Of a stretch of 64,000 nucleotides of DNA, positions 3,959-63,052 are shown piece by piece; the first letter of the stretch is position 1, and each line of letters begins with the position of its first letter. The notes beneath the pieces are model-generated. The model was given only the letters and a program-made list of their open reading frames with translations. It was not told where the DNA came from and ran no database searches. Both the position numbers and the translations under genes were made by a program. Source of the DNA: Deltaproteobacteria bacterium (GTDB taxonomy: Bacteria > Desulfobacterota > BSN033 > UBA1163); contig JBBIMX010000001.1 of the NCBI GenBank assembly GCA_037444165.1, positions 1,026 through 65,025 on the forward strand, in the 5' to 3' direction.

Positions 3959-5066
3959 TCAGTTTGTATTCGTATTCAGGAGATAGGTTTTCATGAACTC
4001 GTCAATTTCCCCATCCAAGACGCGATCCACCTGATAGATGACCTTATTGGTCCGGTGGTCTTTCACCATCTTATAAGGATGTAAAATGTAAGAACGAATT
4101 TGACTTCCCCAAGCGATCTCTTTCTTCGAATGATGAAGTTCTCGTAATTTTTCCTCCTTCTCCTTTCGTTCCTTCTCATAAAGTCTCGCCTTTAATATTT
4201 TTAAGGCCATCGCTTTATTTTTATGTTGGGAGCGTTCATTTTGGCATTGAACGACGATTCCGGTTGGAAGGTGAGTGATTCGGACGGCAGAATCCGTTTT
4301 ATTCACATGCTGCCCTCCTGCTCCACTCGAACGAAAGGTATCTATTCTCAAATCCTTTTCGTCAATCTCAATATCGATCTCTTCGGGAACCTCGGGAATC
4401 ACAAATACAGAGGCAAAGGAGGTATGTCGCCTCGCTCCTGCGTCAAAGGGAGAGATCCGAACCAATCGATGGATTCCCACTTCTGCCTTTAAATATCCAT
4501 AGGCATACTTACCATTTACGGTAAAGGTCACGTTCTTTATCCCCGCTTCCTCTCCAGGGAGGATATCCACAATTTGGGTTTGATATCCTTTCTTTTCGGC
4601 CCATCTCAAATACATTCTAAGAAGCATTTCAGCCCAATCCTGGGCCTCTGTCCCTCCTGCCCCTGCATTAATGCTCACGATCGCATTTCTCTCGTCATTT
4701 TCCCCCTTCAGCATTTGTCTAAATTCCATCTCATTGATGGCTTCTTCGTTCTGCTGAATTTTTTTAAGAAGTTCTTCGGCTTCCCTTTCATCATTCTGCT
4801 CCTCGATAAGTTGAAGAAGAACCTCCATCTCTTCAATTTCTTTTTTCTTCTCTTGCCAAGAGGATAGGCCTTCTAAAAGAGAATTCCTCTCTTTTAGAAT
4901 TTTTTGTGTCATCTCCCCCCCTTCCCAGAAATTAGGTTCTGACATCATCTTCCCAATCTCGTCTAATCGTTTCTCTTTTTTTTCGAGGTCAAAGATAGCC
5001 TCGCATTATCTCTAAACGATTATTTAACTCCTTCAATCGACCCTTAAGTTCAACAATCATTGCCAT
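3959..5066 (-). CDS. prfB: peptide chain release factor 2 (programmed +1 frameshift)
   Basis: The 329-aa ORF has the SPF motif and the GGQ motif ([21 protein letters not shown]). Upstream, a short frame reading [25 protein letters not shown] ends at the classic CTT TGA C shift site at 4994..4988 (minus). Confidence 0.9.
4988..4994 (-). other. RF2 programmed +1 ribosomal frameshift site CUU UGA C
   Basis: Minus-strand sequence ...GGCTATCTTTGACCTCGAA...; frame 0 stops at TGA and the +1 frame continues [23 protein letters not shown]. Confidence 0.85.
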
Positions 5067-9971: not shown

Positions 9972-10020
9972 CTTTTTACATAGAATATAGAGGATGAAAC
10001 AGATAAGGATTTTGTATTAT

Positions 10021-11160: not shown

Positions 11161-11230
11161 CTTGTGAACTCTCCTTTCTATGAAAAATCGGGTGTCTTCG
11201 GTACCTCCTCGTCCCTAACCACTCATCGGA

Positions 11231-11653
11231 TTAGGCATTCCATAATCGCCTCATCGGATTGGGCCCCATCTTCTTGAGCTCCTCCACCATCTTGGTCACG
11301 GTATCCGCAAACAGCTTCCCCTCACTGGCACTGATCCAACGAAGCCAAATCCGATCCTCCCCAAAACCCAATTCCTTCAATATTCCCTTCAGGATCGCCA
11401 CCCTCCTTCTTGCCTTATAGTTTCCCGTCTGATAATGACAGTCTCCAGGATGGCAACCCCCAATAAGCACTCCATCGGCCCCATCAATCAAGGCCTTCAA
11501 GATATAGATCGAATCCACTGCCCCAGAACACATCAAATGGATGATCCGAATATTCGGAGGATACTGTTGCCGCGTGGTCCCAGCAAGATCCGCCCCCGTA
11601 TAGGTACACCAGTGACATAGAAATGCAATAATCCTCGGCTCAAAGTCTCCCAT
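11231..11653 (-). CDS. mvhD: MvhD-like hydrogenase iron-sulfur (delta) subunit
   Basis: 140 aa with FLCHWCTYTG...MCSGAVD...GGCHPGDCHY, the characteristic MvhD/FlpD cysteine pattern. Confidence 0.8.
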   Translation of the reverse strand: MGDFEPRIIAFLCHWCTYTGADLAGTTRQQYPPNIRIIHLMCSGAVDSIYILKALIDGADGVLIGGCHPGDCHYQTGNYKARRRVAILKGILKELGFGEDRIWLRWISASEGKLFADTVTKMVEELKKMGPNPMRRLWNA

Positions 11654-11710
11654 AGCTTCCTCCTTCAGTTAAAAAATCGCATAACGCTATGCTTTTTACG
11701 CCATGCTTGA

Positions 11711-14722: not shown

Positions 14723-14744
14723 CTCTCCCTCTCCATCCCATAGC

Positions 14745-15590
14745 TTATCCCAATCCCAAGGACTCCAACAAAGGCCTCGGAGAAATTAAATGCTTCCCCC
14801 ACCACCTCTCCCTCTGCCCAATATCAAAAGCGACCCCCATCAGCTCCGTAAAATAGAAGACCGGGAGACCTAACTCCTGCCTCATCTCCAAGTTCATCTG
14901 ACACAACCCACAGGAAGTAACAATCGCCTGAGCTCCAGCCTCCCTCGCCATAAAAACAATTCTCCCCACCATCTGCCTCACAATCGACCCATAGGTCATC
15001 GCTAAATCCGCCCCACAACAGTCCACCTTATAAGACCACTCCACAGGCTGAGCCCCAAGAACCCTCATCAGCCGATCCATCGATTGAGGGTTCTCAGGAT
15101 CATCAAACCTCGTCACCTTAGGATGCCGAACCAAAGCACAACCATAATAACAAGCCACCTTCAGCCCCTTGAGCGTCCTCCTCACCCTCTCATACACCCT
15201 CTCCAACCCAACCCGATTGACCACCACATCCAACAACGCCAAAATCTCCAGAGAAGGATCATACCTGAAACCCACAATCTCCTCGATCACCCTTCGATCC
15301 CTCTGCTCATTCCTGAGCACATACTCCGTCCTCTTCAAATTACTAAAACATCCTGCACAAGGAACCACCAATGAACTCAACCCGGAAAGAAGAGCCTTCG
15401 ATATAATCCTCGCAGGAAGACAAAGAGAAAGAAGACGATTCAAACTGTGAGTGGCCGCAGCCCCACAACAGTTCCAATCCTCCACCTCCACTAACTCCAC
15501 CCCCAACGCCTTAAAAACCTCCTCCGTCGAAAGCCCATACTCCATCGATGAAGAACGATCCGTACAACCAGGAAAATATGAAAACCGCAT
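14745..15590 (-). CDS. hdrB: heterodisulfide reductase subunit B (two CCG domains)
   Basis: MRFSYFPGC...DWNCCGA... and VDCCGADL CCG-domain signatures. Confidence 0.85.
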   Translation of the reverse strand: MRFSYFPGCTDRSSSMEYGLSTEEVFKALGVELVEVEDWNCCGAAATHSLNRLLSLCLPARIISKALLSGLSSLVVPCAGCFSNLKRTEYVLRNEQRDRRVIEEIVGFRYDPSLEILALLDVVVNRVGLERVYERVRRTLKGLKVACYYGCALVRHPKVTRFDDPENPQSMDRLMRVLGAQPVEWSYKVDCCGADLAMTYGSIVRQMVGRIVFMAREAGAQAIVTSCGLCQMNLEMRQELGLPVFYFTELMGVAFDIGQRERWWGKHLISPRPLLESLGLG

Positions 15591-15627
15591 CTCCTACCCT
15601 CCAAAAGGTCTAATTATGAATAATCCC

Positions 15628-16203
15628 TCACTCCCCTTGTCCACACCTCTCAAAAATCCTCCGAATCTCCTCCCTCGCCTTTACCATGCTCGGAAATAAA
15701 GGAAACTTCCCCTTGAAAAAAAGCCTCAATCCTGACCCCAATGAATCCCTCATCCAATCCCGACTCCTCAACACATAATCCATCAACATCGTCACCTCAT
15801 GAGCCCTCCCACCCCTCCTCACGCTCTGAATAAAAGCCTCATGAAAAAGATGAATCCTCTTCTCTTTCACCTCCACCCCTTCCTCCACCGCCATCTCCCT
15901 CAACGCATCCATCAATACCCCGATGTGAATCTCATTCGGACACCGCGTCCCACAAGTCTGACAATATACACAAAACCAGATTGCACCACTGCCCAAAACC
16001 TCCCCCCTCCTCCCCATCTGAATCATCCGAATCAACTGATTCGGCTTAATATCCATATAAGGAGCCGTCGGACAACCCGCCGTACACTTCATACACTGAT
16101 AACATAACTCCACCCGCTCCCCACTCCGACTCCTCACCTCCTCCAAGAAAAAAGAACTCTCCTCTATCCCCTTCAATCCCTTTTCCAATTTTTCCACCTC
16201 CAT
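15628..16203 (-). CDS. hdrC: heterodisulfide reductase subunit C
   Basis: CYQCMKCTAGCP and CVYCQTCGTRCP 4Fe-4S dicluster motifs; 191 aa. Confidence 0.8.
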   Translation of the reverse strand: MEVEKLEKGLKGIEESSFFLEEVRSRSGERVELCYQCMKCTAGCPTAPYMDIKPNQLIRMIQMGRRGEVLGSGAIWFCVYCQTCGTRCPNEIHIGVLMDALREMAVEEGVEVKEKRIHLFHEAFIQSVRRGGRAHEVTMLMDYVLRSRDWMRDSLGSGLRLFFKGKFPLFPSMVKAREEIRRIFERCGQGE

Positions 16204-16227
16204 TGTCGTTGTTCCCTTTTTAAATTT

Positions 16228-18237
16228 TTATATAAACGTATCGACCATCCGAAGGGTCTGGATCGATGAGGAATTTCTCAATTCACAGGCAAAATTAGGG
16301 CATGCAGCAATACAGGCTCCGCATCCCTGACAGAGGGCGCTGTGAACGACAGAGATTCCTCGCCGGAGGTCCATCTCCCTCGCTTCATAGGGACATATCT
16401 CAACACAAATTCCACAGCCACTGCAAATCGTCTCATCCACATAGGCGATGAGTGGGTCCTGAAAAAGTTTGTCTGTCGAAAGAAGGGCCTGGATCTTGCT
16501 GGCTGTGGCTGAAGCCTGAGAGACGGTGTCCGTGATATCCTTCGGGCCTTGTCCACAGCCTGCCAGATAGATCCCTCTAGTTGAACTTTCTACGGGATAG
16601 AGTTTAATATGGGCTTCTGTCAAAAATCCATGTTTATCAACGGTCGCTCTTAACTTGCTCGCAAGTTCTTTGACTCCTTCAGAGGGAATGATCGCCGTGG
16701 CCAGGACAACCAAATCCGCACCAATCTCTACCCTCTTTCCGGTCAGGGTATCCACGCCCCACACCTTTACTTTTCCATCCTCCTGAAAAATCCTTGAGAC
16801 ACGTCCCCTGAGATAGAGAATCCCATTCTCTTCAATCGTCTTCTGAAGGAACTCCTCGTAACCCTTTCCGTCCGAACGAATGTCCATATAAAAGACATAA
16901 GGTTGACCATCCGGAACCTGTTTTTTATAAATCGTTGCCTGTTTTGCCGTATACATGCAGCAAATTCTTGAACAGTAAGGCATATAACGATCAGGATCCC
17001 TCGAGGCTACGCATTGAATAAAAACCATCTCTTTCGGAACCCTTCCATCAGAAGGTCGCTGGATTCTTCCCCGGGTAGGTCCATCGGGAGATAACATCCG
17101 TTCAAAGGTAAGCCCATCGATGACATCCGGAATCTCCCCATATCCATATTCTCCTAACTTTTCATTAGGGAAAAGGTCAAATCCAGTCGCTACCACGATA
17201 GCTCCAACCTTTCTTTCGATCTTCTCCTCCTTTTGATCGAATTGAATCGCTCTCTGGGGACAAACCTCTGCGCATCTTCCGCAGCTTCGGTCTTTGAAGT
17301 ATGGGCATTGAGTCGAAGAAAGGAAAACTCGTCGGGGAATACAATGGGGGTAAAGAAAATCAATGGCCTTTCTCACCCCCAACCCTCTTTCAAATGGAGA
17401 AGGGTACTCGATGGGGCAGACTTCGATACAGAGACCACATCCATTACACCGGGTCCAATCCACATAGGTAGTCTTTTTTCGCAGCCCTATCTCAAAATTT
17501 CCTATATACCCTTTTACCTCTTCCACTTCGGAGTAACAAAAAAGTTCGATCTTCGGATGAGCCTCTATTTCGGAGGCCTTGGCGAGGAGACCGGGGAATG
17601 CTGGAGAAAGCTCTGGAAAGGTTTTCGAGAGTTGAGCCATATGTCCTCCCAGGGCTGGAGATTTCTCAACCAGAATCACTTCATATCCCCCCTGGGCAAG
17701 GTCAAGGGAGGCTGTCATTCCTGCAATTCCTCCTCCAATCACCAACACATTTCTGTGGAGGCTCATGGCCAGGGGTTCGAGCTTCTCGTTTCTTCTCACT
17801 TTCTCTAAGGTCGCTTGAATGATCTGCAGGGCCTTCCGGGTCGCCTCCTCTTTCTCCTTTTGATGAACCCAGCTACACTGCTCCCGAATATTGGCGATCT
17901 CACAGAGATAGGGGTTCATTCCTGCTGTCTTCACCGCTTTACGAAAAGTATTTTCATGCATACTCGGCGAGCAACAGGCGACGACCACTCCATCAAGCCT
18001 TTTCTCCTGAATCGCCTCTCGGATGAGCTGTTGACCGGGCTCTGAACACATATAGATGTAGTCCACACTATGGCAAACATCCTCGGTTCGACCAATCTCT
18101 TCGGCCACCCTTTTTACATCGACTGTACCGGCAATATTCACCCCACAATGACAGATAAAAACTCCCAGCTTTTTCATAGCCCATTCCAGCGGGTTTATAT
18201 TAATCTCCGACCTCGTTACCCTCTCACCGGTCTCCAT
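16228..18237 (-). CDS. hdrA: heterodisulfide reductase subunit A (full length)
   Basis: 669 aa; N-terminal Cys domain (GVFICHCG...CSWVH), FAD motif (VLVIGGGIAGMTASLDLA), inserted ferredoxin and C-terminal 2x[4Fe-4S] domain. The start may be the internal MKKLGVF at 18177. Confidence 0.85.
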   Translation of the reverse strand: METGERVTRSEININPLEWAMKKLGVFICHCGVNIAGTVDVKRVAEEIGRTEDVCHSVDYIYMCSEPGQQLIREAIQEKRLDGVVVACCSPSMHENTFRKAVKTAGMNPYLCEIANIREQCSWVHQKEKEEATRKALQIIQATLEKVRRNEKLEPLAMSLHRNVLVIGGGIAGMTASLDLAQGGYEVILVEKSPALGGHMAQLSKTFPELSPAFPGLLAKASEIEAHPKIELFCYSEVEEVKGYIGNFEIGLRKKTTYVDWTRCNGCGLCIEVCPIEYPSPFERGLGVRKAIDFLYPHCIPRRVFLSSTQCPYFKDRSCGRCAEVCPQRAIQFDQKEEKIERKVGAIVVATGFDLFPNEKLGEYGYGEIPDVIDGLTFERMLSPDGPTRGRIQRPSDGRVPKEMVFIQCVASRDPDRYMPYCSRICCMYTAKQATIYKKQVPDGQPYVFYMDIRSDGKGYEEFLQKTIEENGILYLRGRVSRIFQEDGKVKVWGVDTLTGKRVEIGADLVVLATAIIPSEGVKELASKLRATVDKHGFLTEAHIKLYPVESSTRGIYLAGCGQGPKDITDTVSQASATASKIQALLSTDKLFQDPLIAYVDETICSGCGICVEICPYEAREMDLRRGISVVHSALCQGCGACIAACPNFACELRNSSSIQTLRMVDTFI

Positions 18238-19572
18238 TTAATGTGTTGCAAAGAGGGCTTGAACCTTGCTTGCGGCGGCATTGGCATGGGCAACCGTCTC
18301 GGCAATATCTTTTGGTCCTTGGGCACACCCTGCCAGATAAATCCCCTCCTGATTGGTCTCTACTGGTTTCAGCTTCCTCTCTGCCTCTGTCAGAAACCCA
18401 TATGAATCGCTATGAATCCCCAATATTTGAGCCAGCGTCTTTGTTTCTTGATGAGGGACGATCGCTGTTGCCAGGACAACCAGATCGGCTAAGACTTCAA
18501 CCTTTTTCCCTGTGAGGGTATCTACCCCCCAAACCACAATTTTTTCTCCTTCACGAAAGATCCTCGAAACTCGTCCTCTCAAGTAGAGAATCCCTTCTTC
18601 CATCGTTTGTTGAATAAACTCTTCATATCCTTTTCCTGTGGATCGAATATCCATATAGAAGATGTAGACCTGACCATCATGAACCTTGTGTTTATAGAGC
18701 CGGGCATGTTTTGCTGTATACATACAACAGACCCTTGAACAATAAGGCATGTATCGCTCTGGATCCCTTGAGCCGGTACACTGGATAAAGACCACCTCTT
18801 TGGGTATCCTTCCATCCGAAGGTCTTCGGATCTCCCCGTTTGTGGGTCCAGAGGCCGAGTTCAATCTCTCAAAGGAAAGCCCATCAATCACATCTGGAAT
18901 CTCCCCATATCCATATTCCCCAAATCGCTCTACAGGCATCAAATCAAATCCAGTGGCGACGACAATGGCTCCAACCTTTTCCTCAATCAACCGATCTTCC
19001 TGTTGATAATGGATTGCCCCCACGGGGCAGATTTTTTCACACACCCGACATTTCTTCTCCAAAAAATACCGACAGTGTTCAGGGTTGATAACCGGTTTAT
19101 TAGGAACAGCCTGAGGAGAGAGGGTATAGATGGCCTTCCCAAGACCCATCCTTCGATCAAATTCAGAGGGGTATCTGGAAGGACATTTCTGTTGACAAAG
19201 ACCACACCCTGTACACTTTTCCCAATCGACATAGGCTGCTTTCTTACGAATCTGGACAGAAAAATTTCCAGCTCGTCCCGCTACTCTCACCACTTCGGAA
19301 TAGGTGTGAAGTCGAATTCGTGGGTGCTGACCTGTCTCTACGGTCTTTGGGGTCAGGGTGCACTGGGCACAATCAAGAGTAGGAAAGGTTTCGGAAAGCT
19401 GAAGCATATGGCCACCGATGGAGGGTAATCTCTCTATTAGGAGGACTTCATATCCTGCATTCCCAATGTCAATGGAAGCGGTGATCCCAGCGATTCCCCC
19501 ACCTATGACCATTGCCCTTTTAATAAAACCATTCTCAGAAGTACCCATCTCTATTTTATTCTCGCCTCCCAT
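18238..19572 (-). CDS. hdrA: short HdrA-like flavoprotein (QmoA-like, lacking the N- and C-terminal ferredoxin domains)
   Basis: 444 aa; FAD motif (MVIGGGIAGITASIDIG) and inserted ferredoxin (CTGCGLCQQKCP, CRVCEKICP). Clearly paralogous to the 669-aa HdrA; PYCSR[IV]CCMYTAK and YLRGRVSRIF are conserved in both. Confidence 0.8.
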   Translation of the reverse strand: MGGENKIEMGTSENGFIKRAMVIGGGIAGITASIDIGNAGYEVLLIERLPSIGGHMLQLSETFPTLDCAQCTLTPKTVETGQHPRIRLHTYSEVVRVAGRAGNFSVQIRKKAAYVDWEKCTGCGLCQQKCPSRYPSEFDRRMGLGKAIYTLSPQAVPNKPVINPEHCRYFLEKKCRVCEKICPVGAIHYQQEDRLIEEKVGAIVVATGFDLMPVERFGEYGYGEIPDVIDGLSFERLNSASGPTNGEIRRPSDGRIPKEVVFIQCTGSRDPERYMPYCSRVCCMYTAKHARLYKHKVHDGQVYIFYMDIRSTGKGYEEFIQQTMEEGILYLRGRVSRIFREGEKIVVWGVDTLTGKKVEVLADLVVLATAIVPHQETKTLAQILGIHSDSYGFLTEAERKLKPVETNQEGIYLAGCAQGPKDIAETVAHANAAASKVQALFATH

Positions 19573-19595
19573 AAGGAAGGGAGATCGAATTGAAG

Positions 19596-20465
19596 TTAAA
19601 CCAATCCTTTCCTTTTTAAGAGGGGGATTGGGTCTACCGCATTCTGCTCGAACCCTAAGGTTTGAGGTTCAAGTCCCATCGCTACTCCAAGGAGTTGGGT
19701 AAAATAGAGTACGGGAATCGTTTTAAAATCTAAATGGGCCTTAAGGATATCAGACTGTTTTTGATCCAGATTAAAGGTACAGAGTGGACAGGTCGAAACG
19801 ATGACTTCAGCTCCCTGCCTCATTGCAGAGGTGAGAATTCGATAGGCACATTCCGTAGCCACCTCCGGAGTGCCCACGGATTGAAACGACCCACAGCATT
19901 CTATCTTATAAGGAAAATCGATGGATCTGGCGCCCAAGGCAGTCAAAAATTCTTCAAAGAGGGTTGGCCTTTCTTTATCATCAAAACCCATCTCTTCAAA
20001 TGGACGCAGAAGCATGCAACCGTAATACGGTGCGGCTTGAAGTTCATTCAGAGGTTTTTTCACTCTTTCCTGAATGGTTGAAAAACCAATCTCCTGTTTC
20101 AAAATTTCGAGGTAGTGTAAGACTTTCAGGTCGCCCTGATAATTCATCTCGATAAATTGATTGATCTTTTCCCGTTTCTCACCATCCTTCTGGATTAAAT
20201 GATTCGTCCTTTTAATGACGTTAAAACAGATCGCACAAAGGGTGGTCAGGACTTCTCCCTGCTCTTTTGCCCGGGCTAAAATTCTCGCAGGAGGGAGAAG
20301 GGCCATAAGGTTATCTGTGGCCAGCGGGAAAGTGGCTCCACAACAAGTCCAGTTTGGAAGTTCCACGAGTTCAAATCCAAGGAGAAGGGAACAGTTTCGA
20401 GCTGTTTGATCAAAGTTTTTTGCTTTCGTGTAAAGGGTGCATCCTGGGAAATAGAGATAATTCAT
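19596..20465 (-). CDS. hdrB: heterodisulfide reductase subunit B
   Basis: MNYLYFPGCT...NWTCCGA and IECCGS CCG motifs. Start set at the internal methionine. Confidence 0.8.
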   Translation of the reverse strand: MNYLYFPGCTLYTKAKNFDQTARNCSLLLGFELVELPNWTCCGATFPLATDNLMALLPPARILARAKEQGEVLTTLCAICFNVIKRTNHLIQKDGEKREKINQFIEMNYQGDLKVLHYLEILKQEIGFSTIQERVKKPLNELQAAPYYGCMLLRPFEEMGFDDKERPTLFEEFLTALGARSIDFPYKIECCGSFQSVGTPEVATECAYRILTSAMRQGAEVIVSTCPLCTFNLDQKQSDILKAHLDFKTIPVLYFTQLLGVAMGLEPQTLGFEQNAVDPIPLLKRKGLV

Positions 20466-20536
20466 AAGCACTCCGAAATGGCATAGGACAGAGGACATCG
20501 CACGGAATAAGAAAAACCCTATGCCCTTTGCTTGGG

Positions 20537-47700: not shown

Positions 47701-49944
47701 TTAATCCTCCTTCTTAGCTTTTTGGACGGCTTCCAGGACCCTCTCCAGATTTGCTGGGAGATGGTAAATCCTCTCTCCAATGGCATCAGCGATTGCATTC
47801 AAAATGGCTGGGGCCGAAGGAATGAGGGCGGGTTCTCCCACCCCTTTGGCCCCAAAAGGACCACTCGGTTCCTGATCTTCCACCAAAATAGGAATCACTT
47901 CGGGAATATCCTTGGAGGTGGGGATAAGATAATTAACGAAAGAGATAGTCCTTCCAGGGTCATACTCCTCCATTAAAGCAAACCCAACCCCCATCGCCAC
48001 TCCTCCGATAATCTGGCCGATTACATTGTTTGGATGAATCGCTCTTCCCACATCGTGGCATGCGATCACCCGAAGGACCTTTACCTTTCCCGTCTCGATA
48101 TCGACCTCCACTTCAGCCAGGTGGGTGGCAAAGGCATAAGTCGCATAAGGGCTCCCCTGTCCTGTTTCTGGATCCAGTCTTGTCGTTTCTGGATCGAAAT
48201 GACCTTCTCCTCTGATGGTCTTCCCAGTTCTCCTCGCAACTTCTTGGATGGGTAAACCCAAGCATAGTTTCTGCCGATGCTTCACCAATCCATCCTCCAC
48301 AAAAAGGTCCTTCTCCTCTTCATTGAGAAGGGAGCTTGCCTCCTGAAGAACCTTTTTCTTAAGGTTCCCTATCGCATTGAGAATGGCATTGCCTGTAATA
48401 TAAGTCTGACGACTTGCAGAGGTTGCGCCTGTATCGGTAGTGAGGAAAGTATCGGCCCTGATGAGTTGAATCTCCTTTAATTCAATCCCTAAAGCTTCGG
48501 AGGCAATCTGAAGAAGAACGGTGTCTGAACCCTGTCCAATATCGGCCACTCCGATATAAAGGATGATTTCTCCTTTTGGAGAAAGTTCTATCTGTGCTGT
48601 GGATGGATTTGCCATCCCAGTATTTCCGATCCCGTACCACATTGAACCAATCCCGATGCCCCTTCGGATAAAGGGTCTTTTTGAATCCAAGGGGGAAGGC
48701 AAAATTTTCCTTCGCCACTCTTCGATCCTCTCTAATGTCTTTCGAATTCCCACACTTGCCCTGAGGACCTGACCCGTCGCTGTCTCACTCCCAATTTGAA
48801 GGGCATTGATTTTTCTTATTTCTAAGGGATCCATCTTTAAGGCTTGAGCCAAAAGATCCATCTGGGACTCATGGGCAAAAGCGATCTGGGGTACTCCGAA
48901 TCCTCTCATCGCCCCCGACCATGGGTTATTGGTGTAAGCCATTCGGCTTCTGACCTTCACATGGGGGACTTGATAGGGACCAGTCGCATGAACTGCTGCC
49001 CTGATGGCAACGGTTGTCCCATAGGAGGCATAAGCCCCCGTATCCCCTAAAATATCCACCTCCACGGCAGTGAGTCTTCCATCCTTTCTTGCTCCACTCC
49101 GATAATGAATCTTCAAGGGATGTCGTTTAGAGATCACCTGAAAGACTTCTTCTCGAGTATATACCATTTTGACAGGTCTTTTTAGGTGAAAAGCGGCCAA
49201 GGCTAAAAAACATTGAATTGTGATATCGAGCCTTCCTCCAAAGGCACCCCCTGTGGTGGACTGAATGATCCTTACCCTCTCGAAGGGCAAGTTAAGAAAG
49301 GAGGCCACCTCCCTCTGATCGTAATGCACATTCTGGGTGGGACAGATGATCACCAGTCTCTCCTCTTCATCCCAATACGCCACCCCTCCATCGGGTTCTA
49401 AATAGGCATGATCAACCCAGGTCGTTGTATAAGTGTTTTCTATGATGACTTCTGCCTCTTTGAATCCAACCTGGATATCCCCCTTGACGAGATTAAACTC
49501 TACAAGCAAATTTCCCTTTTCATGGATAGGAGGAGCGAATGGCTGAAGCGCTTCCTCGGGAGTCTTTATGGAAGGAAGTTCCTCATAGGTCACCTTTATT
49601 TTCTGAGAGGCCTCTTCCGTAGCTTCGACTGTTTCTCCCGCAACAAGGGCGATGGGATCCCCCACATACCTTACGCGATCTAAAGCGAGGACAGGCTGGT
49701 CCTTCTGGATGATTCCAATCCGATTCCTTCCAGGGATGTCCTTTGCGGTAAAGATTCTTTCGACCCCTTTAACCTGGAGGGCTTCTTCTAATTCGACTTT
49801 TACTATCTTAGCATGGGGTTTATCACTTCGAACAACTTTGAGATAAAGGGGATTGGGGATGCAGTAATCCCCTCCATATCGTGAAGCTCCTAATACTTTA
49901 TCCAGAGCATCTAACTTTAAGACATTTACTCCAATCTTCTTCAT
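47701..49944 (-). CDS. xanthine dehydrogenase-family molybdopterin-binding large subunit
   Basis: 747 aa with aldehyde oxidase/xanthine dehydrogenase a/b hammerhead and MoCo-binding domains. Confidence 0.85.
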   Translation of the reverse strand: MKKIGVNVLKLDALDKVLGASRYGGDYCIPNPLYLKVVRSDKPHAKIVKVELEEALQVKGVERIFTAKDIPGRNRIGIIQKDQPVLALDRVRYVGDPIALVAGETVEATEEASQKIKVTYEELPSIKTPEEALQPFAPPIHEKGNLLVEFNLVKGDIQVGFKEAEVIIENTYTTTWVDHAYLEPDGGVAYWDEEERLVIICPTQNVHYDQREVASFLNLPFERVRIIQSTTGGAFGGRLDITIQCFLALAAFHLKRPVKMVYTREEVFQVISKRHPLKIHYRSGARKDGRLTAVEVDILGDTGAYASYGTTVAIRAAVHATGPYQVPHVKVRSRMAYTNNPWSGAMRGFGVPQIAFAHESQMDLLAQALKMDPLEIRKINALQIGSETATGQVLRASVGIRKTLERIEEWRRKILPSPLDSKRPFIRRGIGIGSMWYGIGNTGMANPSTAQIELSPKGEIILYIGVADIGQGSDTVLLQIASEALGIELKEIQLIRADTFLTTDTGATSASRQTYITGNAILNAIGNLKKKVLQEASSLLNEEEKDLFVEDGLVKHRQKLCLGLPIQEVARRTGKTIRGEGHFDPETTRLDPETGQGSPYATYAFATHLAEVEVDIETGKVKVLRVIACHDVGRAIHPNNVIGQIIGGVAMGVGFALMEEYDPGRTISFVNYLIPTSKDIPEVIPILVEDQEPSGPFGAKGVGEPALIPSAPAILNAIADAIGERIYHLPANLERVLEAVQKAKKED

Positions 49945-50804
49945 TGGAGATTCTCAAAGGCCTGCTGAATTGCTCTCATTACCAGGGCCTTTACTACAGG
50001 TGATTTATAAGAAGTGGAGGGGCGAACTCCACTTCGTAAAACCATCTCTGAAGAAGTCTTTTCAGAGGCCACTCTTAACCGTTCAAGATCAAAGGGCTGA
50101 TCCTCTAAGAAAGATTCTGCTTCCTTCATTCTTTGAGGAGTAGGAGTGATTGCTCCTACCGAGATTCTAACCTGTTTCATCCTAATTCCCTCTCTTTGAA
50201 GCAAGACAGCGATACTCATTCTGGCTATAGCCATCCCATCTCGCCTGGCCAATCGGATAAAAGATCCTTTCATATGTGGATGGAGTTTCTTAAACGAGAT
50301 GGAAACTAAAATCTCATGGGGAAGCAGGGTGCTCCGATAAGGGCCTTGGATAAGGGACTCAATAGGGACCTCTTTCTCTCCTTCTTTGGATACGACTTTC
50401 CCCATCGCCTCCAATACCATCAGAGGAGGAAGTGTATCTGCCGCAGGGGAGGCATTAACAACATTCCCTCCAATCGTTCCAGTATTTCTGATCTGGGGAG
50501 ATCCTATCTGGGAGGCTGCCTCTGAGAGTATTTTCCCATAGGTGTTTATGATAGGGGAGACGGCAATTTCGGAATGGGTGACTGCCCCTCCAATAGAAAT
50601 GGCCCCATCTTTCTCCTCTATTTTTCTAAGTTCCGCAATACGGGTAATATCAATAAGAAACTCAGGCCTGAGGAGTCCATTTCGAAGAGCAATGATCAGA
50701 TCCGTTCCCCCTGCGATCACCTTTGCCTTCTCTCTGTAATCCCACAAAAGATCGCAGGCCTCTTTGAGGTTTTTCGGAATTTTATACTGAAATGGAGGGA
50801 TCAT
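49941..50804 (-). CDS. molybdenum hydroxylase FAD-binding subunit (CoxM/XdhB-like)
   Basis: 287 aa with VIAGGTDL FAD-binding motif; translationally coupled to its neighbours. Confidence 0.8.
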   Translation of the reverse strand: MIPPFQYKIPKNLKEACDLLWDYREKAKVIAGGTDLIIALRNGLLRPEFLIDITRIAELRKIEEKDGAISIGGAVTHSEIAVSPIINTYGKILSEAASQIGSPQIRNTGTIGGNVVNASPAADTLPPLMVLEAMGKVVSKEGEKEVPIESLIQGPYRSTLLPHEILVSISFKKLHPHMKGSFIRLARRDGMAIARMSIAVLLQREGIRMKQVRISVGAITPTPQRMKEAESFLEDQPFDLERLRVASEKTSSEMVLRSGVRPSTSYKSPVVKALVMRAIQQAFENLQ

Positions 50805-51254
50805 CTATTTTCCAACCGCTTCAATTGCTTCCATGATCTGCTGGTATCCTGTACAACGACAAAGATTCCCTGAAATAGCCTCTTTTATCTCTTCTCGAGT
50901 TGGCTTCGGGTTTTTCTCCAATAAGGCTTTCGCAGACATTAACATTCCCGGGGTACAGAATCCACACTGAACAGCCCCATGCTCAATAAAAGACCTCTGT
51001 AAAGGATGAAGAGATTCCCTGCTTCCGAGTCCTTCCACTGTCTCAACCCGCCTTCCTTCAACTTTGGGGACTAAAATGAGACAGGAGTTAACGGCCAATC
51101 CATCCAGCAAGACCGTGCAGGCACCGCATTCGCCAATCCCACAGCCCTCTTTGGTGCCTGTCAATCCGAGTTTTTCTCTAAGGAGGCGAAGAAGGGTCCA
51201 GTGAGGAGGAACCTCTACCTCGATCTCTTTTCCATTAAGAACGAATCGAATCAT
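50805..51254 (-). CDS. molybdenum hydroxylase [2Fe-2S] small subunit
   Basis: 149 aa with CGIGECGACTV and CGFCTPG motifs. Confidence 0.85.
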   Translation of the reverse strand: MIRFVLNGKEIEVEVPPHWTLLRLLREKLGLTGTKEGCGIGECGACTVLLDGLAVNSCLILVPKVEGRRVETVEGLGSRESLHPLQRSFIEHGAVQCGFCTPGMLMSAKALLEKNPKPTREEIKEAISGNLCRCTGYQQIMEAIEAVGK

Positions 51255-52759: not shown

Positions 52760-54067
52760 TTACCTTCCCATCATGCTGGGTAAAAAAAGGGCTATTTTAG
52801 GAAAAATCGTGATCAGGACTACTACCACAATCATCGAAAAAAGGAAAGGCATCGCTCCCCGGAAGATCGTCTCCATGGGAACATCCTTCACGACTCCAGC
52901 AAGGGTGTATACATTTAATCCCACAGGAGGGGTAATCAATCCTGCCTCCATCATGATCACACAGATCACTCCGAACCAAATGGGATCAAAGCCAAGCGTC
53001 TTAATCACCGGGAAAATGACAGGCATGGTCAGAACCATCATGGAAATAGCATCTAAAAAGCAACCCATAAATAGATAAATCAGCACGATGATGGAAAGGA
53101 TGAAATATCGAGAAACCTCAAGACTCGCCATCCAGTTTGAGACAGCCATCGGAATGGTTGAGAGGGCAAGAAAGTAACTAAAAACATTGGCTCCGGCTAC
53201 CAAAAAGAGGACAAGGACAGAAATTCGAGTGGCCTCCAATAAAGAGGTCGTAAGAGTTTTTAGAGTCAATTTTCCCTTTAAAAGAATGATTATAAAAAGG
53301 GCGGTTGCCCCGATTGCTCCTGCTTCCGTAGGATTGATAAAGCCAAGATATATCCCTCCCATGACAATGAGAAATACCAGAAGGGTCTCCCATATTCCGG
53401 AAAGGGCAAGAATCTTTTCCTTCAAACTGATCTCCCCAGAAGTGGCGGGGGCTAAATGAGGGTTAAGTTTGACTTGGATTACAATGATGAGAATAAAAGC
53501 CAAAGAAAGAAGGGCTCCTGGAAAGATACCCGAGATTAAGAGTTTTCCGATAGACTGTTCGGTCAGCATCCCATAGACCACAAACCCTAAAGAGGGGGGA
53601 ATGAGAAAGCTAAGGGTTCCTCCTGCAGCGACCACTCCGACTGCCAATTTGGGATCGTAGCGAAATCGTCTCATCTCCGGAATGGCGATTGTTCCCATGG
53701 CTGCAGAGGCGGCTACAGAAGAACCACTGAGGGCTGCAAAGAAGGCACAGGCAGCAATGGTTGCAATCCCTAATCCGCCAGGCCATTTTCGAAACCACTT
53801 ATCGAAGGATTCATAGAGTTCACGGGTAATCCCTGCACCCCCTGCAAATCCGCCCATCAGGATGAAGAGAGGGATGATGGTATAAGGATAATGGGAGGCG
53901 GTTTCATAAAGGGTCTTGGCCACAACGGGCAGGGCAGCATGGATGGAGGTTAAATAACTGATGCCTAAAAACCCCACAAACATCATGACAAAGGCAATGG
54001 GCATTCCAAGAAAGAGCAAGAAGACCAACACCCCACTGCCAATGATTCCAATCGTAATTGGACTCAC
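52760..54067 (-). CDS. dctM: TRAP transporter large permease
   Basis: 435-aa polytopic DctM-family protein. Confidence 0.85.
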   Translation of the reverse strand: MSPITIGIIGSGVLVFLLFLGMPIAFVMMFVGFLGISYLTSIHAALPVVAKTLYETASHYPYTIIPLFILMGGFAGGAGITRELYESFDKWFRKWPGGLGIATIAACAFFAALSGSSVAASAAMGTIAIPEMRRFRYDPKLAVGVVAAGGTLSFLIPPSLGFVVYGMLTEQSIGKLLISGIFPGALLSLAFILIIVIQVKLNPHLAPATSGEISLKEKILALSGIWETLLVFLIVMGGIYLGFINPTEAGAIGATALFIIILLKGKLTLKTLTTSLLEATRISVLVLFLVAGANVFSYFLALSTIPMAVSNWMASLEVSRYFILSIIVLIYLFMGCFLDAISMMVLTMPVIFPVIKTLGFDPIWFGVICVIMMEAGLITPPVGLNVYTLAGVVKDVPMETIFRGAMPFLFSMIVVVVLITIFPKIALFLPSMMGR

Positions 54068-54552
54068 TTTTCGTCCCTTTTCAGCTTTTTTATAAAATCG
54101 ATTAGATCCATCATCAGTTCGAGCCAGAGCAGAAAGCCCCCAATGGCTACAAGGAGTCGAAAAGGAGATTGAGGAATTCTCAACATGTCTGAGACCGTTC
54201 GTTCTCTAATTCCCTCAACCCATCCCTGCCAGACGAGAATGGTGATAATAAAGAGACTGAGGAGCGTGGTCATAATCCTGCAAAGGGTTCGAACTCGGGG
54301 AGATAACCGATTAATAATAAAATCCACTCCTACATGCCCTTTCACCTGTTGGGTATAAGCAGCCCCTAAAAGAATAAACACCGCTAACATATATTCGGAT
54401 AATTCGAAGGTCCCAGGGATGGTTTTGGAAAGAAATTTTCTCCCCAAAACATCCCCTGTAGTTAACAACATCAATGGAAGGAGAAGAAACATCCCGGCCA
54501 TACACACACATAAATTGAATCGCTGGATCAGTTTCCTCATCTTTACAGTCAA
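54064..54552 (-). CDS. dctQ: TRAP transporter small permease
   Basis: 162 aa with four TM helices; 4-nt overlap with dctM. Confidence 0.8.
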   Translation of the reverse strand: MTVKMRKLIQRFNLCVCMAGMFLLLPLMLLTTGDVLGRKFLSKTIPGTFELSEYMLAVFILLGAAYTQQVKGHVGVDFIINRLSPRVRTLCRIMTTLLSLFIITILVWQGWVEGIRERTVSDMLRIPQSPFRLLVAIGGFLLWLELMMDLIDFIKKLKRDEK

Positions 54553-54634
54553 TTCACTTTAGGGTGAGTAAAATTTCACAATTAAACCCAAATTGAAGGG
54601 GCGATTCATGTCGCCCCTCCTTTGGTGATAAATT

Positions 54635-55705
54635 CTATTTCGCCCATTCCTTTGGAAAAGCAACCACCTTCACACCCCTCTTCTCGCATTCTTGGTTGAA
54701 CATCTTGACGGTCTCTTTTGCAGGAAGCCCTTTACTTTCCAAACCGGCTACCCATTTCCTTGTCTCCTCTCTGAACCCTTCATACCATCTTTCTGCTTCC
54801 TCTGCTGGAAGGGTGTAAAGATTGACCCCTTTATCCGCAATTTCTTTCATCATTACCTTATAGACCTCTCGAGTCAGTCCTCCTGTTGTTCTAAAAGGAT
54901 TACGTCCTAACGATTCTATAATTGCCTTATGTTCCTCAGGCAACTTTTTCCAGCTCTCCATATTCATCACTACGCCCTCGGTCACACATCCAAATGTAGC
55001 AATCACCCCATGTTTCACGACCTCCTGGAGCTTAAAACTCAGAAGGATAGGAGGACATGTTACAAGGCCATCTATGGTCCCTGTCTCCATAGCCAGATAG
55101 ACATCTCCCAGAGGCATGAAAATAGGCTCTGCACCTAATGATTTGATATAATTGGTTTGATGTCCTCCTGGAGTTCTTATCTTCAGTCCTTTAGTATCTG
55201 CTAATGAACGGATGGGTTTTTTTGTCCACAAAAAGGATTGGATGCAACCGTTCAATTCGATCATTTTCACATCTTTGAATTCTCTATGGAGCATTCTTTC
55301 GTACATCGCGTTACCGATATCCACAGCGAGGTCTTTTCCGTCCACCCAGGCGGCCAATGAGAGAACATCCGAAAGAGGAAAACGTCCCGGCGTCCAGGTG
55401 GCGGTGAAGTATCCCATGTCTGAAAGTCCTTTGGCTACAATATCAAAGTGTTCAGGCCCTTTTCCTAAGGCTGCACCTGCATACATCGTGTATGAAATTT
55501 TTCCACCACTTTTCTTCTTCATCTCCTCAAGCATGGGCTCCCAAACCGTCTTTACCTCTCGACCCGCAGGTGCATGCCAGGTGCTAAAACGGATATGGGT
55601 GGTCTGGGCAAAGGAGAGTTCATAAATACCACCCCCCAATCCTAAAGCCATACCTCCAATAATCGATCCCTTTAAAAAATTCCTTCTCGTTAGTCCCTCA
55701 CACAT
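54635..55705 (-). CDS. dctP: TRAP transporter substrate-binding protein with Tat signal
   Basis: RRNFLKGSIIGGMALGL twin-arginine signal plus a DctP-family fold. Confidence 0.8.
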   Translation of the reverse strand: MCEGLTRRNFLKGSIIGGMALGLGGGIYELSFAQTTHIRFSTWHAPAGREVKTVWEPMLEEMKKKSGGKISYTMYAGAALGKGPEHFDIVAKGLSDMGYFTATWTPGRFPLSDVLSLAAWVDGKDLAVDIGNAMYERMLHREFKDVKMIELNGCIQSFLWTKKPIRSLADTKGLKIRTPGGHQTNYIKSLGAEPIFMPLGDVYLAMETGTIDGLVTCPPILLSFKLQEVVKHGVIATFGCVTEGVVMNMESWKKLPEEHKAIIESLGRNPFRTTGGLTREVYKVMMKEIADKGVNLYTLPAEEAERWYEGFREETRKWVAGLESKGLPAKETVKMFNQECEKRGVKVVAFPKEWAK

Positions 55706-59299: not shown

Positions 59300-60690
59300 T
59301 CAGCTCTTGTCGCCATGGACTCTTTCCTGATGGAGTTTCTTTCCGGCTTGCTCGGCTGCAATTAAAATTGGGTCTAAAGGGGCAGAAAAAGGAGGTGCAT
59401 AAGCAAAATCGAGTCTCGAAATTTCATCGATCGTCATTTTTTGATGGAGAGCGACTGCCAATGCATTGATCCTCCTCGCCACCCCCTCCTTGCCCGCCAT
59501 CTGAGCTCCTAATAGTCTCCCATTTCTCTGATCAAAGATTAACTTAATGAGCATTCTTTTTGATCCAGGCATATATCCCACCTTTGATTCAGCTTCAATC
59601 ATCTGTGACTCCGCATCGAAACCGTATCGCTTGGCAACTTGAAAGCCTAAACCTGTAAAGGCGACCTCCAGTTCAAATACCTTGAAAGCAGCCGATCCCA
59701 CCACTCCATGAAATGTGGCTTTACCCCCTGCAGCATTTTCGCCCGCGACCCTTCCCTGTTTATTGGCAATATCTCCCAATGGGGTATGGACCCAATCTTG
59801 GCTTATTAGATTAAAGACTTCACAACAATCTCCTGCCGTATAGATATCTTTAAGATTTGTCTTTTGAGAAAAATCCGTCCTTATCGCTCCTGTCTTTCCA
59901 AGCTCAATCCCTGCCTCTCGGGCCATTTCAACATTAGGCACTACACCGATAGCCATCAGGACCATATCCGTAGAATACTCTCCTTTTGTGGTTTCAACAG
60001 ACGTCACTTCTCCATGGCCATTTAGATGAAAGGCTACGGGTTCTTGATTGGGGAGGAAGTGGACTCCACTTTCTTGAAGCTCCTTCAATATCCTTTCTGA
60101 GATCTCTCTTTCAAGATTTCCAGCCGGTAAGTCCCTACGACAGAATAAAAAGGTTTCTATCCCCCTCGATCTGAAAGCTTCGCACATCTCAAGGCCAATA
60201 AACCCTCCTCCAAGGACAGAAACCCGTTTAGGTCTTGTTTCATCTATATAGGTTTTGATACGGATCCCATCTTGAATATCCTTCAGGGTGAAAATGTTCA
60301 TGGCATTGCTTCCAGGAAGGTTGAGACGTCTGGATCGGCCCCCAGTAGCAATGATGAGTTTGTCGTAAGAAAAACATTGAGTTTCGGATTTGGATAGGTC
60401 AATGACTTCGATTCTTTTCTCTTGCGGATCAATTTGAGTCACCCGATGTTCTATCAGAACATCGATATCCTGCATCTCTTTAAATTGTTGTGGGGTTCGA
60501 ACTATCAATTTTTTTTGATCTTTGATTACATCACCGATGTAATAAGGAGTTTCTCAGGATCCATAGGATATAAATCTTCCCTGCTCGAACAGGGTAACTT
60601 CCAGCTCAGGATTGACTCGCTTGGCTCGGGCCGCTGCACTGGGACCTGCCGCTGAACCTCCAATAATAAGAAGTTTCTCTTTTCTTGGCA
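59300..60690 (-). CDS. FAD-dependent pyridine nucleotide-disulfide oxidoreductase (CoA-disulfide reductase / NADH oxidase family); probable selenoprotein with an apparent N-terminal 1-nt frameshift
   Basis: ATG at 60690 with an AGGAG ribosome-binding site. A canonical N-terminus MPRKEKLLIIGGSAAGPSAAARAKR is recovered only if one G is restored near 60660. An in-frame TGA at 60556..60554 aligns with the catalytic Cys of CoADR (SFANCALPYVIG versus SYGS-U-ETPYYIG). An 8-bp stem-loop (ATTACATCggtGATGTAAT) starts 11 nt downstream. The remaining 402-aa ORF is typical of this family. Confidence 0.6.
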
Positions 60691-60747
60691 TATTCCACTC
60701 CTTCCCTTTAAACTCGATGATTATTCAAACCCAACTTATTGAGTTAA

Positions 60748-60787: not shown

Positions 60788-60863
60788 ATTTTCAGGGTAC
60801 CCTTTTCCCTTCCCCTCTTCTTCATCCTAAATATTTACGAAAAGAAGAGAGGAAGGGAAATAA

Positions 60864-61586
60864 TTAAAAAGCCATCTCTGGTTTCCAGACCTTCCATACC
60901 TTCCCTGCTAAGTCAGGACCGGGTTTCAAGGTTGGTTTTCCTGGCTGCCAACCAGAAGGCATGACCTCTCCTGTGGCACGTACATGTTGAAAGGCTTTGA
61001 TCTGTCTGATCAGTTCAGTCACATTTCGCCCTACTGGTGGGGTTAATATCTCCATGGCCTGAATGATCCCATCCGGATCAATTAAAAACCGACCTCGAAT
61101 ATCTACCCCTACCTCCTCATCATATACCCCATAAACTTTGCCAATCCGGCCACCACTGTCTGAAAGCATTGGAAATGGAACTCCACCAGGGACCATTTTC
61201 GAGAGTTCCTCTTCCTGCCAAATCTTATGAGTAAATCGGCTATCCGTACTTAGCGAAATCACCTCTACTCCAAGAGACTTAATCTCATTGTATTTGGCGG
61301 CAACTGCCGACAATTCTGTTGGTCAAACGAATGTGAAATCACCAGGATAAAAACAGAGAATCACCCACTTTCCCCTATAATCCGAAAGTTTAATATTTTT
61401 GAATCCTCCATCTATATAAGCACTTGCCTCGAAATCAGGGGCTGGCTTCCCAACTTGAGCTATCACTTTAAACTCCTCCCTTCTTATTGGACTTGGATAA
61501 GGGGTTTCAGTCTCAGGAACAATCGGTCCCTTTGCCGGCTCTACACACGAATCTTTAGCCTCTCCCATTGGCATTCCTCCTTTCAT
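60864..61586 (-). CDS. 2-Cys peroxiredoxin (AhpC/Prx1 family), selenocysteine-containing
   Basis: The two ORFs 61323..61586 and 60864..61313 are one frame-continuous gene interrupted only by TGA at 61325..61323. This gives ...[35 protein letters not shown]..., placing the TGA exactly at the peroxidatic Cys of the FTFVCPTE motif. A resolving-Cys-region homolog lies downstream. Confidence 0.75.
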
Positions 61587-61658: not shown

Positions 61659-62738
61659 TTATGCGGTGGTAAAGGTGTAACGCGTTCCCGCCGTATTGAT
61701 GATAAATTGCTTGGGCATCTCCCTTTCAAACATGGTCACGGCTTCCCACCCCGTACAATGCATGGGAATGATATAGTCTGGATTTATAGCCTTCATCTCT
61801 GCTACGGTACTTTGAATTTTGGCTATCGGAGCTCCGATTAAATGGAATCCTCCTATGACGACATGAACCTTATCGATTCCAGTCATCTTCTGAGCGTGTT
61901 TTACGGTGTTGACGATTCCTGCATGGGCACAGGAAGACAAAACGACCAACCCTTTTCCTTTAACGTTAAATACGACGGACTGCTCTCCCATGAACAGATC
62001 CAGTTCCATTTTATCTCCTCGTTTAATAAATAGAATCGGAGATCCTTTCTCATATTCTGTAACCCTTTCTATATTTCCTGTTAAATAAGCCCCAGGAACA
62101 ATTGGAGTGGGCTCCTTAATCTCTATAATCTTGACCCAATTGAGCGCTTCTATTTCCTCCCGCTTCAATTGTCCCAGATCCTGCATACCACTCGGGTCAT
62201 AGCGCCCAGCAGGAAGATTGGCAAACCGACGATGAAAAGTTTCTTCCCCAACGTAAAGGGGTATGCCCTTCCTGATTTTCGTCCTATTATGTTTGAGAAT
62301 GGCGATGAGATTCCCCCAATGGTCGAAGTGACCATGGCTGATACCCATGGCCTCTAACTTGTTCAGATCCAAGTTAAGGAGCTCTATATTCTTACTCACT
62401 CCTTGAAAATCCAAACCATAATCAAACATGAAGGCATAAGATTTACCATCCATCCATGTCTCGATGTAGTAAGACAAACCGTGCTCGGCATGAAATGACG
62501 AGTCAGGACCGATCATATATCGTTTAACCATTTTAAAATCGGGAGGATATAAATTCCACCTTAAACAATCGTAATAATTGTCTGTTATCACGGTGATCAC
62601 TAATTTTTCAATCTCCGGAATTTTAACAGCACCATAAGCCACTGTAGCACCTCCTTTCAAAGCATCGCCTGCCATTAACATTGCCCCTGTTACAACCGAT
62701 GTTTTTAAAAATTCCCTGCGGTTCATCTCTTTTAACAT
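61659..62738 (-). CDS. MBL-fold metallo-hydrolase with Tat signal
   Basis: MLKEMNRREFLKTSVVTGAML twin-arginine leader and an HGHFDH metallo-beta-lactamase motif. Confidence 0.7.
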   Translation of the reverse strand: MLKEMNRREFLKTSVVTGAMLMAGDALKGGATVAYGAVKIPEIEKLVITVITDNYYDCLRWNLYPPDFKMVKRYMIGPDSSFHAEHGLSYYIETWMDGKSYAFMFDYGLDFQGVSKNIELLNLDLNKLEAMGISHGHFDHWGNLIAILKHNRTKIRKGIPLYVGEETFHRRFANLPAGRYDPSGMQDLGQLKREEIEALNWVKIIEIKEPTPIVPGAYLTGNIERVTEYEKGSPILFIKRGDKMELDLFMGEQSVVFNVKGKGLVVLSSCAHAGIVNTVKHAQKMTGIDKVHVVIGGFHLIGAPIAKIQSTVAEMKAINPDYIIPMHCTGWEAVTMFEREMPKQFIINTAGTRYTFTTA

Positions 62739-63052
62739 AACTCCCACCTCCTTCATGAATTGGTTTTGAGGGTTAAGGAGTAAGGGAAAAAACTTACCCC
62801 TAAAACTGCCTATCCCACCCTGTGGGCACACCAACTTCAAACCCTTTACTCGAATCCTATTTTAGATGAGCCCTCACCTCCTTTCATCACTCCTGTAAGC
62901 CCTTTTAATCTCATCCTCAGACGCATTTCGATTGAGACCCAAGATCTGATCATAATCTTTTCGGTGCACTCTTAAACCCCTCAAGAGGTCCACGGCCCCC
63001 TAATTGATCCCTCAGGGGGATCCCACTGAAAAAGCAGAATGCCTGTTTGCCA

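Follow-up and report, generated by a model that had tools for sequence, protein, structure and literature searches.

We analyzed a 64,000-nucleotide stretch of contig JBBIMX010000001.1 from a Deltaproteobacteria bacterium (the window), in which two neighbouring minus-strand genes, a peroxiredoxin (Prx) gene of the PrxU family and a flavoprotein gene, each carry one in-frame TGA at the codon for the catalytic Cys (Table 1). For the Prx gene, the initial annotation had described two adjacent open reading frames (ORFs) in one frame, separated by TGA, and translation of 61586..60864 agrees with that description: the ORFs 61586..61323 and 61313..60864 have the same reading frame, and the whole comprises 240 codons with a single internal stop, the TGA at 61325..61323 ('tca' on the plus strand), before a terminal TAA at 60866..60864. 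The extent given there, 60864-61586, holds at the stop end but probably not at the start end. The first in-frame ATG, at 61586, would give 240 codons and the ATG at 61568 (MGEAKDSC...) gives 234 codons; the latter is probably the true start, because a Shine-Dalgarno sequence, GGAGG, lies 6 nt 5' of it and because alignments of homologous DNA to the gene begin there. The TGA occupies the last position of the peroxidatic motif PxxxTxxU/C, present here as P81-G-D-F-T85-F-V-U88.

Table 1. Features of the window discussed in the text, with positions counted from the first nucleotide of the window.
Feature	Position	Strand	Basis or remark
Prx gene, PrxU family	60864..61568	minus	Pfam, NCBIfam NF040737, PDB relatives
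In-frame UGA at peroxidatic position, FTFV-U-PTE	61323..61325	minus	residue 88 of 240-codon frame; residue 82 from 61568
Candidate bacterial SECIS-type hairpin, UUG.UCGGC[AGUU]GCCG.CAA	61294..61313	minus	nt 13-32 from U of UGA
Inverted repeat, 19-nt arms, 95% complementary, 19-nt spacer	60804..60860	minus	arms 60804-60822 and 60842-60860
Flavoprotein gene, 463 codons, CoA-disulfide reductase/NADH oxidase/NADH peroxidase group	59300..60691	minus	Pfam, NCBIfam, PDB
In-frame UGA at single redox Cys, RFISYGS-U-ETPYYIGD	60554..60556	minus	U46, aligned to 6ruz
Hairpin AUUACAUC[GGU]GAUGUAAU	60525..60543	minus	nt 14-32 from U of second UGA
prfB (release factor 2)	3959-5060	minus	frameshift site 4989-4994

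Profile searches of the Prx translation against Pfam and NCBIfam, made with U read as C, place the gene in a defined family. The Pfam domain AhpC-TSA matches at 1e-39 across the TGA join, together with Redoxin and 1-cysPrx_C, and the NCBIfam equivalog profile NF040737 ('peroxi_PrxU') matches with 396.5 bits against a cut-off of 270, residues 12-238 corresponding to positions 2-233 of the 233-position profile. The equivalog score exceeds the cut-off, and the protein is therefore an ortholog-level member of this curated family. The closest solved structures are those of typical 2-Cys Prx, with human Prx2 at 1.5e-53, followed by Prx4 and AhpC. Human Prx2 (1qmv/5ijt) and Salmonella AhpC (1yep) are alignable over residues 43-226 and have in common with the window protein the active-site loop DFTFV(C/U)PTE and the conserved Arg region. 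The Prx1/AhpC-type domain match and the alignment to solved structures thus confirm that the TGA stands at the peroxidatic Cys (Cp), as the initial annotation had proposed. The window protein differs from typical 2-Cys Prx in the predicted presence of selenocysteine (Sec) instead of Cys at Cp and in an additional N-terminal Cys motif; like the NF040737 profile, the window protein has an arm of about 38 residues at its N-terminus, in which one Cys is invariant.

The position of the TGA is conserved. A scan of species-representative genomes yielded 80 Prx loci, 79 of which have TGA at the Cp codon; the sole exception, in an Acidobacteriota metagenome-assembled genome (L030), has TGC. The 80 loci are those nearest to a query of Sec type, so the proportion holds for this clade and not for Prx in general. 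TGA is present at this codon in 87 of 88 Prx genes when the 86 fetched loci and the window are considered, and in 6/6 related metagenome contigs. The labels of the 80 loci represent more than 10 phyla and include Syntrophaceae, other Thermodesulfobacteriota, Anaerolineae/Dehalococcoidia, Ignavibacteria, Nitrospiraceae, Actinomycetota, Zixiibacteriota, Bacillota, Armatimonadota, Latescibacteria, Planctomycetia and Aminicenantes; synteny and best matches (L007, L008 and L010) suggest that the window organism is probably a member of the Thermodesulfobacteriota of Syntrophaceae/Syntrophales type. A protein search returned three classes of homolog: full-length JGI calls with 73-81% identity and 'W' at Cp; two 149-residue C-terminal fragments with 93% identity; and true Cys forms with about 63-71% identity (Aggregatilinea lenta, Neorhodopirellula pilleata and others). 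The 'W' of the first class (FVWPTE) is a TGA translated under another code; the DNA of one such entry, P0001, has an in-frame stop there under translation table 11. No record identical to the 149-residue C-terminal fragment of the window itself turned up in an exact look-up. Among the closest relatives, Sec thus appears almost always to be the rule in this Prx family. The view of the initial annotation that Sec-Prx is rare is not borne out within this family; Sec-Prx ranked fifth among 25 bacterial selenoprotein families by frequency in a 2006 count (PMC1794560).

The initial annotation had also pointed to a hairpin 3' of the TGA as a possible bacterial selenocysteine insertion sequence (SECIS). 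The hairpin, cggcAGUUgccg, has a core stem formed by nt 17-20 and 25-28, counted from the U of the UGA, and, if one U.C mismatch is allowed, spans nt 13-32; its apical loop includes G22 and U23, and its minimum free energy (MFE) is -7.8 kcal/mol. Like the SECIS of E. coli fdhF, it lies directly 3' of the UGA, inside the ORF, and its G22/U23 compares with G23/U24 of fdhF. The stem is shorter than that of fdhF and lacks the bulged U, and the sequence is unrelated to fdhF because it is dictated by Prx codons. The likeness to fdhF and to the consensus (Zhang and Gladyshev, in PMC13188914) extends to the small size of the apical loop, in which G precedes U or G; a difference is that the Prx loop alternates between AGUU and GGUC among orthologs. 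We compared the hairpin with the bacterial SECIS (bSECIS) consensus model in the legend of Fig. 2 of PMC13188914, which specifies a loop of 3-9 nt, an upper stem of 4-16 bp, a UGA-to-loop distance of 16-37 nt, an MFE of -7.5 kcal/mol or lower, and G at loop position 1 or 2, usually followed by G or U. The window hairpin has a 4-nt loop, an upper stem of 4 bp with 3 more pairs, a UGA-to-loop distance of 17 nt, and an MFE narrowly within the limit; G22 and U23, which belong to an invariant Val codon, are unchanged in 81 sequences.

The hairpin gains its weight from covariation among orthologs. In 81 distinct TGA-containing orthologous sequences, compared with 500 shuffles and with slid registers, 87.9% of cells are paired, and compensatory double changes occur in 6 of the 9 pairs (75 cells); the observed covariation score was reached by 0/500 shuffles, and no slid register came near it. 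Pair 18-27 is G-C in 67 sequences, A-U in 8, G-U in 4 and another standard pair in 2, and pair 21-24 is G-C in 28, A-U in 51, G-U in 2 and another standard pair in none; neither pair is unpaired in any sequence. Both pairs are formed by synonymous third positions, and the two partners of each switch jointly between A-U and G-C, with A.C never observed. The hairpin proposed in the initial annotation thus is present, fits the bSECIS model and covaries, but is weak evidence by itself: as a putative SECIS it is convincing through the comparison of orthologs and not through folding alone.

The window contains a second gene with the same arrangement, absent from the initial annotation: a flavoprotein gene directly downstream of the Prx gene, with its UGA 0.77 kb further on. 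In Pfam it matches Pyr_redox_2 (1.2e-48) and Pyr_redox_dim. The best NCBIfam match, the coenzyme A disulfide reductase (CoADR) profile TIGR03385, gives 420.9 bits, below the cut-off of 578.8, and NF007123 gives 412.3 bits, below the cut-off of 458; the best PDB match is 6ruz, 'NADH oxidase' (1.7e-103), with NADH peroxidase 1joa and CoADR 1yqz also matched. By these matches the protein is a member of the group that comprises CoADR, NADH oxidase and NADH peroxidase, and not a CoADR equivalog. U46 aligns to the Cys of VSYGACGLPY in 6ruz, that is, to the single N-terminal redox Cys of the group, which faces the flavin. The TGA and the hairpin 3' of it are kept in 74/74 metagenomic relatives covering the site. 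This hairpin has a stem of 8-9 bp (8 bp in the centroid structure), a 3-nt loop of the form G-G-N, and a UGA-to-loop distance of 18 nt; with the 17 nt of the Prx hairpin, both window spacings lie within the consensus range. In 44 distinct sequences G22 and G23 are invariant and 96.5% of cells are paired, and one pair, 15-31, is compensatory (36 C-G, 7 U-A, 1 U-G, 0 unpaired); only a single pair covaries because these sequences are closely related. A published Sec-containing CoADR-type flavoprotein likewise belongs to the TIGR03385-like superfamily and has Sec at a single redox Cys near the N-terminus; its motif is UGxP, whereas the window protein has U-E-T-P, kept in all 74 relatives.

Taken together, the frame, the family, the conservation of the TGA and the covariation of the hairpin make us highly confident that the Prx gene encodes a PrxU-family peroxiredoxin with Sec as the peroxidatic residue. 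In the mechanism that we infer, the Prx UGA would be read during translation by Sec-tRNA(Sec), which SelB would deliver while bound to the hairpin that lies 13-32 nt downstream in the mRNA; this hairpin would be a SECIS of bacterial type within the coding sequence, made of the codons for L-(S/T/A)-A-V-A-(V/A), with the GU of the loop supplied by the invariant Val codon. The flavoprotein UGA would be decoded likewise, with Sec inserted at the single redox Cys, and the two proteins may form an oxidative-stress module of an anaerobe.

The catalytic cycle of the Prx cannot follow the typical 2-Cys scheme. The C-terminal resolving Cys (Cr) is absent, the Cr position (residue 209 of the 240-codon frame, about 60960-60962) being T, M or A in 88/88 family sequences; where Prx2 has GEVCPAGW, with the VCP motif of the resolving Cys, the window protein has GEVMPSGW. 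The protein therefore has a Prx1/AhpC-like fold but not the typical 2-Cys mechanism, and its recycling must use another thiol. An N-terminal Cys, Cys14 (240-codon frame, about 61545-61547) in the motif C-V-x-P-A-x-G-P, is present in 82/82 sequences covering the site, and the pattern of a lost C-terminal and an invariant N-terminal Cys is common to the Sec and Cys forms of the PrxU family. A further Cys, Cys78, is present in 87/88 sequences and is probably structural, because its counterpart in Prx2 is a Phe buried in the core. We propose, because the Cr position lacks Cys while the N-terminal Cys is invariant, that Cys14 is the resolving residue and would form a selenenylsulfide with Sec88. 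The AlphaFold2 model of a natural Cys homolog, P0007, has a confident Prx core (predicted local distance difference test score 87.9) but low confidence over residues 1-40. The selenolate would reduce H2O2 or organic hydroperoxides and become a selenenic acid, which Cys14 would resolve, with subsequent reduction by thioredoxin or another reductase. Among the Cys forms, some of Planctomycete type (P0013, P0024, P0025) have signal-peptide-like N-termini.

Three alternative explanations of the Prx TGA have to be weighed. According to one, the TGA arose by nonsense mutation, or by an error of sequencing or assembly; the gene would then be a pseudogene or would in reality have TGC or TGT at this codon. 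A single base separates TGA from these codons, and the close Acidobacteriota relative L030 does carry TGC; however, the TGA is shared by nearly all of the independent species genomes and by dozens of metagenome contigs, both halves of the protein are 70-93% identical to their relatives, and the feature recurs in another gene of the window. The conservation in 79 of 80 loci therefore excludes this explanation for practical purposes, and we rate it exceedingly improbable. According to another, TGA is a sense codon in this organism (Trp in code 4, Gly in code 25), as the W in the public FVWPTE calls assumes. Against this, the window encodes release factor 2 (RF2), which is UGA-specific: prfB scores 507 bits on TIGR00020 (cut-off 370) and has a +1 frameshift site, CTT TGA C, at 4994..4989, after 23 codons. 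The classical autoregulatory +1 frameshift of RF2 works only where RF2 reads UGA. Moreover, TGA terminates 20 of the 55 long ORFs in the window. The RF2 gene with its frameshift site and the TGA-terminated ORFs therefore exclude codes 4 and 25: elsewhere UGA acts as a stop codon in this organism, as in the standard code. The window has 24 joins in which a single TGA connects two open frames. We judged a join credible where one protein family lies on both sides and the TGA falls on a catalytic Cys, and 2 of the 24, the Prx and the neighbouring flavoprotein, qualified; the remaining 22 were rejected as frame noise or gene overlaps. (A same-frame junction between 18238..19572 and 16228..18237 is not recoding, as a TAA there is directly followed by ATG.) By established Prx chemistry, an enzyme with Trp or Gly as its peroxidatic residue would be inactive, and we give a reassigned code practically no credence.

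The third alternative is that translation stops at the TGA, or that a near-cognate tRNA (Cys or Trp) reads through it without selenium, the hairpin being a by-product of the A-A-V-A-A codons. Several observations favour this alternative and count against Sec insertion. Folding energy is unremarkable for a single sequence: the check that the initial annotation had suggested, folding of the region after the TGA, does return the hairpin at the energy given above, but with a z-score of -1.25 against shuffles, 23 of 200 of which fold equally well; the flavoprotein hairpin, with an MFE of -6.4 kcal/mol in the window (-8 to -12.9 kcal/mol in relatives), misses the -7.5 kcal/mol limit of the bSECIS model and has a z-score of -0.92, no better than many shuffles. 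With z-scores of only about -1, single-sequence folding was rejected as stand-alone evidence for both hairpins. In addition, five Cys-form homologs (L030, L089-L092), intended as a negative control for the Prx hairpin, retain 4-8 of its 9 pairs and so are a weak control; they retain them because A-A-V-A-A codons are inherently self-complementary, and the comparison makes part of the hairpin either a consequence of the encoded amino acids or a fossil. The hairpin is necessary-looking, not diagnostic alone. None of selA, selB and selD was detected when 40 ORFs of the 64 kb window were scanned against Pfam, and ARAGORN found no tRNA-Sec in the window, where an Rfam scan at gathering thresholds gave no RNA family; the Sec trait is for this reason not demonstrated for this genome. 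ARAGORN on the fetched flanks of 14 related loci found only tRNA-Lys and no tRNA-Sec. 

Other observations speak against termination or selenium-independent read-through. The synonymous pairs 18-27 and 21-24 are paired in 81/81 sequences and switch jointly, which amino-acid constraint does not require. An 87-residue fragment, which would lack both the Cp loop and the remainder of the thioredoxin fold, could not act as a peroxidase, and yet the downstream half of the Prx is under strong purifying selection. SelB, moreover, is encoded near the cluster in relatives. Six metagenome contigs have both the split Prx and the split flavoprotein, with the 149-residue C-terminal Prx fragment 93% identical, and in four of the six (L001, L003, L004, L005) SelB (PF09106, PF09107, PF25461) is encoded about 9.5 kb downstream of the Prx, within an opposite-strand group, 8-10 kb downstream, of Se_S_carrier (PF11823), a class-V aminotransferase, a TusA-DsrE fusion and SelB. 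A molybdopterin oxidoreductase gene adjoins this selenium-handling cluster in those relatives. We consider the third alternative very improbable, and retain the reading of a PrxU-family peroxiredoxin with peroxidatic Sec.

Such a protein is already known. The window Prx is unexceptional: its selenoprotein family is known and curated, and it occurs in the kind of anaerobe where such a protein is expected. The PrxU of Eubacterium (Peptoclostridium) acidaminophilum is reportedly 203 amino acids in length. It has the same AhpC/Prx1-type fold and has Sec at the peroxidatic position of PxxxTxxU; decoding of UGA through a hairpin within the coding sequence and an anaerobic host are further points of likeness, predicted from sequence on the side of the window. 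It was described by Sohling et al. (2001), as cited in PMC9312934 and PMC13188914. Prx (TxxU) is counted among the experimentally verified prokaryotic selenoproteins, having first been shown in E. acidaminophilum, and Sec-Prx is recorded in Syntrophus aciditrophicus, Syntrophobacter fumaroxidans, Geobacter metallireducens and others (PMC1794560, PMC9312934, PMC13188914). Both of the selenoprotein families, Prx and flavoprotein, are already in the literature; the pairing of the two genes is not among the selenoprotein operons in a 2026 review, and a clade-specific pairing beyond the operon list of that review is a small addition.

The adjacency of the two genes raises the question of whether they cooperate. 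One possibility is that the two selenoproteins form a dedicated two-component NAD(P)H peroxidase, in which the Sec-flavoprotein would re-reduce the Sec-Prx, directly or through a small thiol, with the N-terminal Cys as the resolving residue; such a system would be AhpF/AhpC rebuilt with selenium at both active sites. The arrangement permits this possibility: a TGA-containing Prx gene lies within 3 kb upstream of the flavoprotein gene in the window, and the same holds for 23 of the 51 flavoprotein relatives for which sufficient upstream DNA was available. The absence of Cys at Cr together with the invariant N-terminal Cys likewise permits it. In the closest flavoprotein relative (L087, 91% identity), a gene for a FUR-family (PerR-like) regulator, at 2333-2791, lies between the split Prx and the flavoprotein, which fits an oxidative-stress regulon. 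Against the possibility, 28 of the 51 relatives have no Prx within the fetched upstream DNA (up to 3 kb), and most PrxU genes outside the clade, in other phyla, have no such flavoprotein neighbour. In the window, the genes are separated by a gap of 172 nt that holds a 19-bp inverted-repeat hairpin and, 5' of the flavoprotein gene, a weak promoter-like site. The inverted repeat, which begins 4 nt after the Prx stop and has no T-run, is possibly an intercistronic stabiliser or attenuator. Because the repeat and the promoter-like site lie between the genes, co-transcription is not established. We consider a dedicated two-component peroxidase unlikely.

The remaining surroundings of the pair are as follows. 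Just upstream of the Prx gene, at 61659-62840 on the minus strand, lies a gene for a 393-residue protein with no Pfam match at 1e-5 and a weak NCBIfam match to the metallo-beta-lactamase fold; it is syntenic with the Prx in L008, and its true start may be at an internal stretch, MNRREFLKTSVVTGAMLMAG, that looks like a twin-arginine signal. At 9219-20498, also on the minus strand, are genes for HdrA-like flavo-iron-sulfur proteins (1003, 669 and 444 amino acids) and smaller ORFs, with no credible in-frame TGA; HdrA is often a selenoprotein in related anaerobes. Two further minus-strand regions, 47701-51254 and 52760-55705, contain a molybdenum hydroxylase trio (MoCoBD large subunit, FAD_binding_5, Fer2_2), followed by an aldehyde dehydrogenase and a TRAP transporter (DctP, DctQ, DctM), an ordinary catabolic context.

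The chief value of the results lies in annotation. Gene callers split the Prx into products of 81-87 and 149 amino acids and the flavoprotein into products of 45 and about 400 amino acids. In public collections, some Prx entries are full-length with Trp at the active site and others are fragments of 81 and 149 amino acids, and 120/120 of the best database homologs of the flavoprotein are N-truncated calls of 383-404 amino acids (mis-annotated public entries: P0001-P0006, P0009, P0064, P0103, P0105 and P0121-P0240). Because callers split these genes or mistranslate the TGA as Trp, many entries for two antioxidant enzymes of anaerobes are truncated or wrong. The results do not overturn current knowledge; their additions are small, namely, the neighbouring Sec-flavoprotein, the clade-specific pairing and a putatively relocated resolving Cys. 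The two genes provide two clean natural cases of SECIS hairpins formed by the codons of conserved residues, and the pair would mark the organism as a selenium user. If it is true that the two genes cooperate, they would constitute a compact selenium-dependent peroxide defence.

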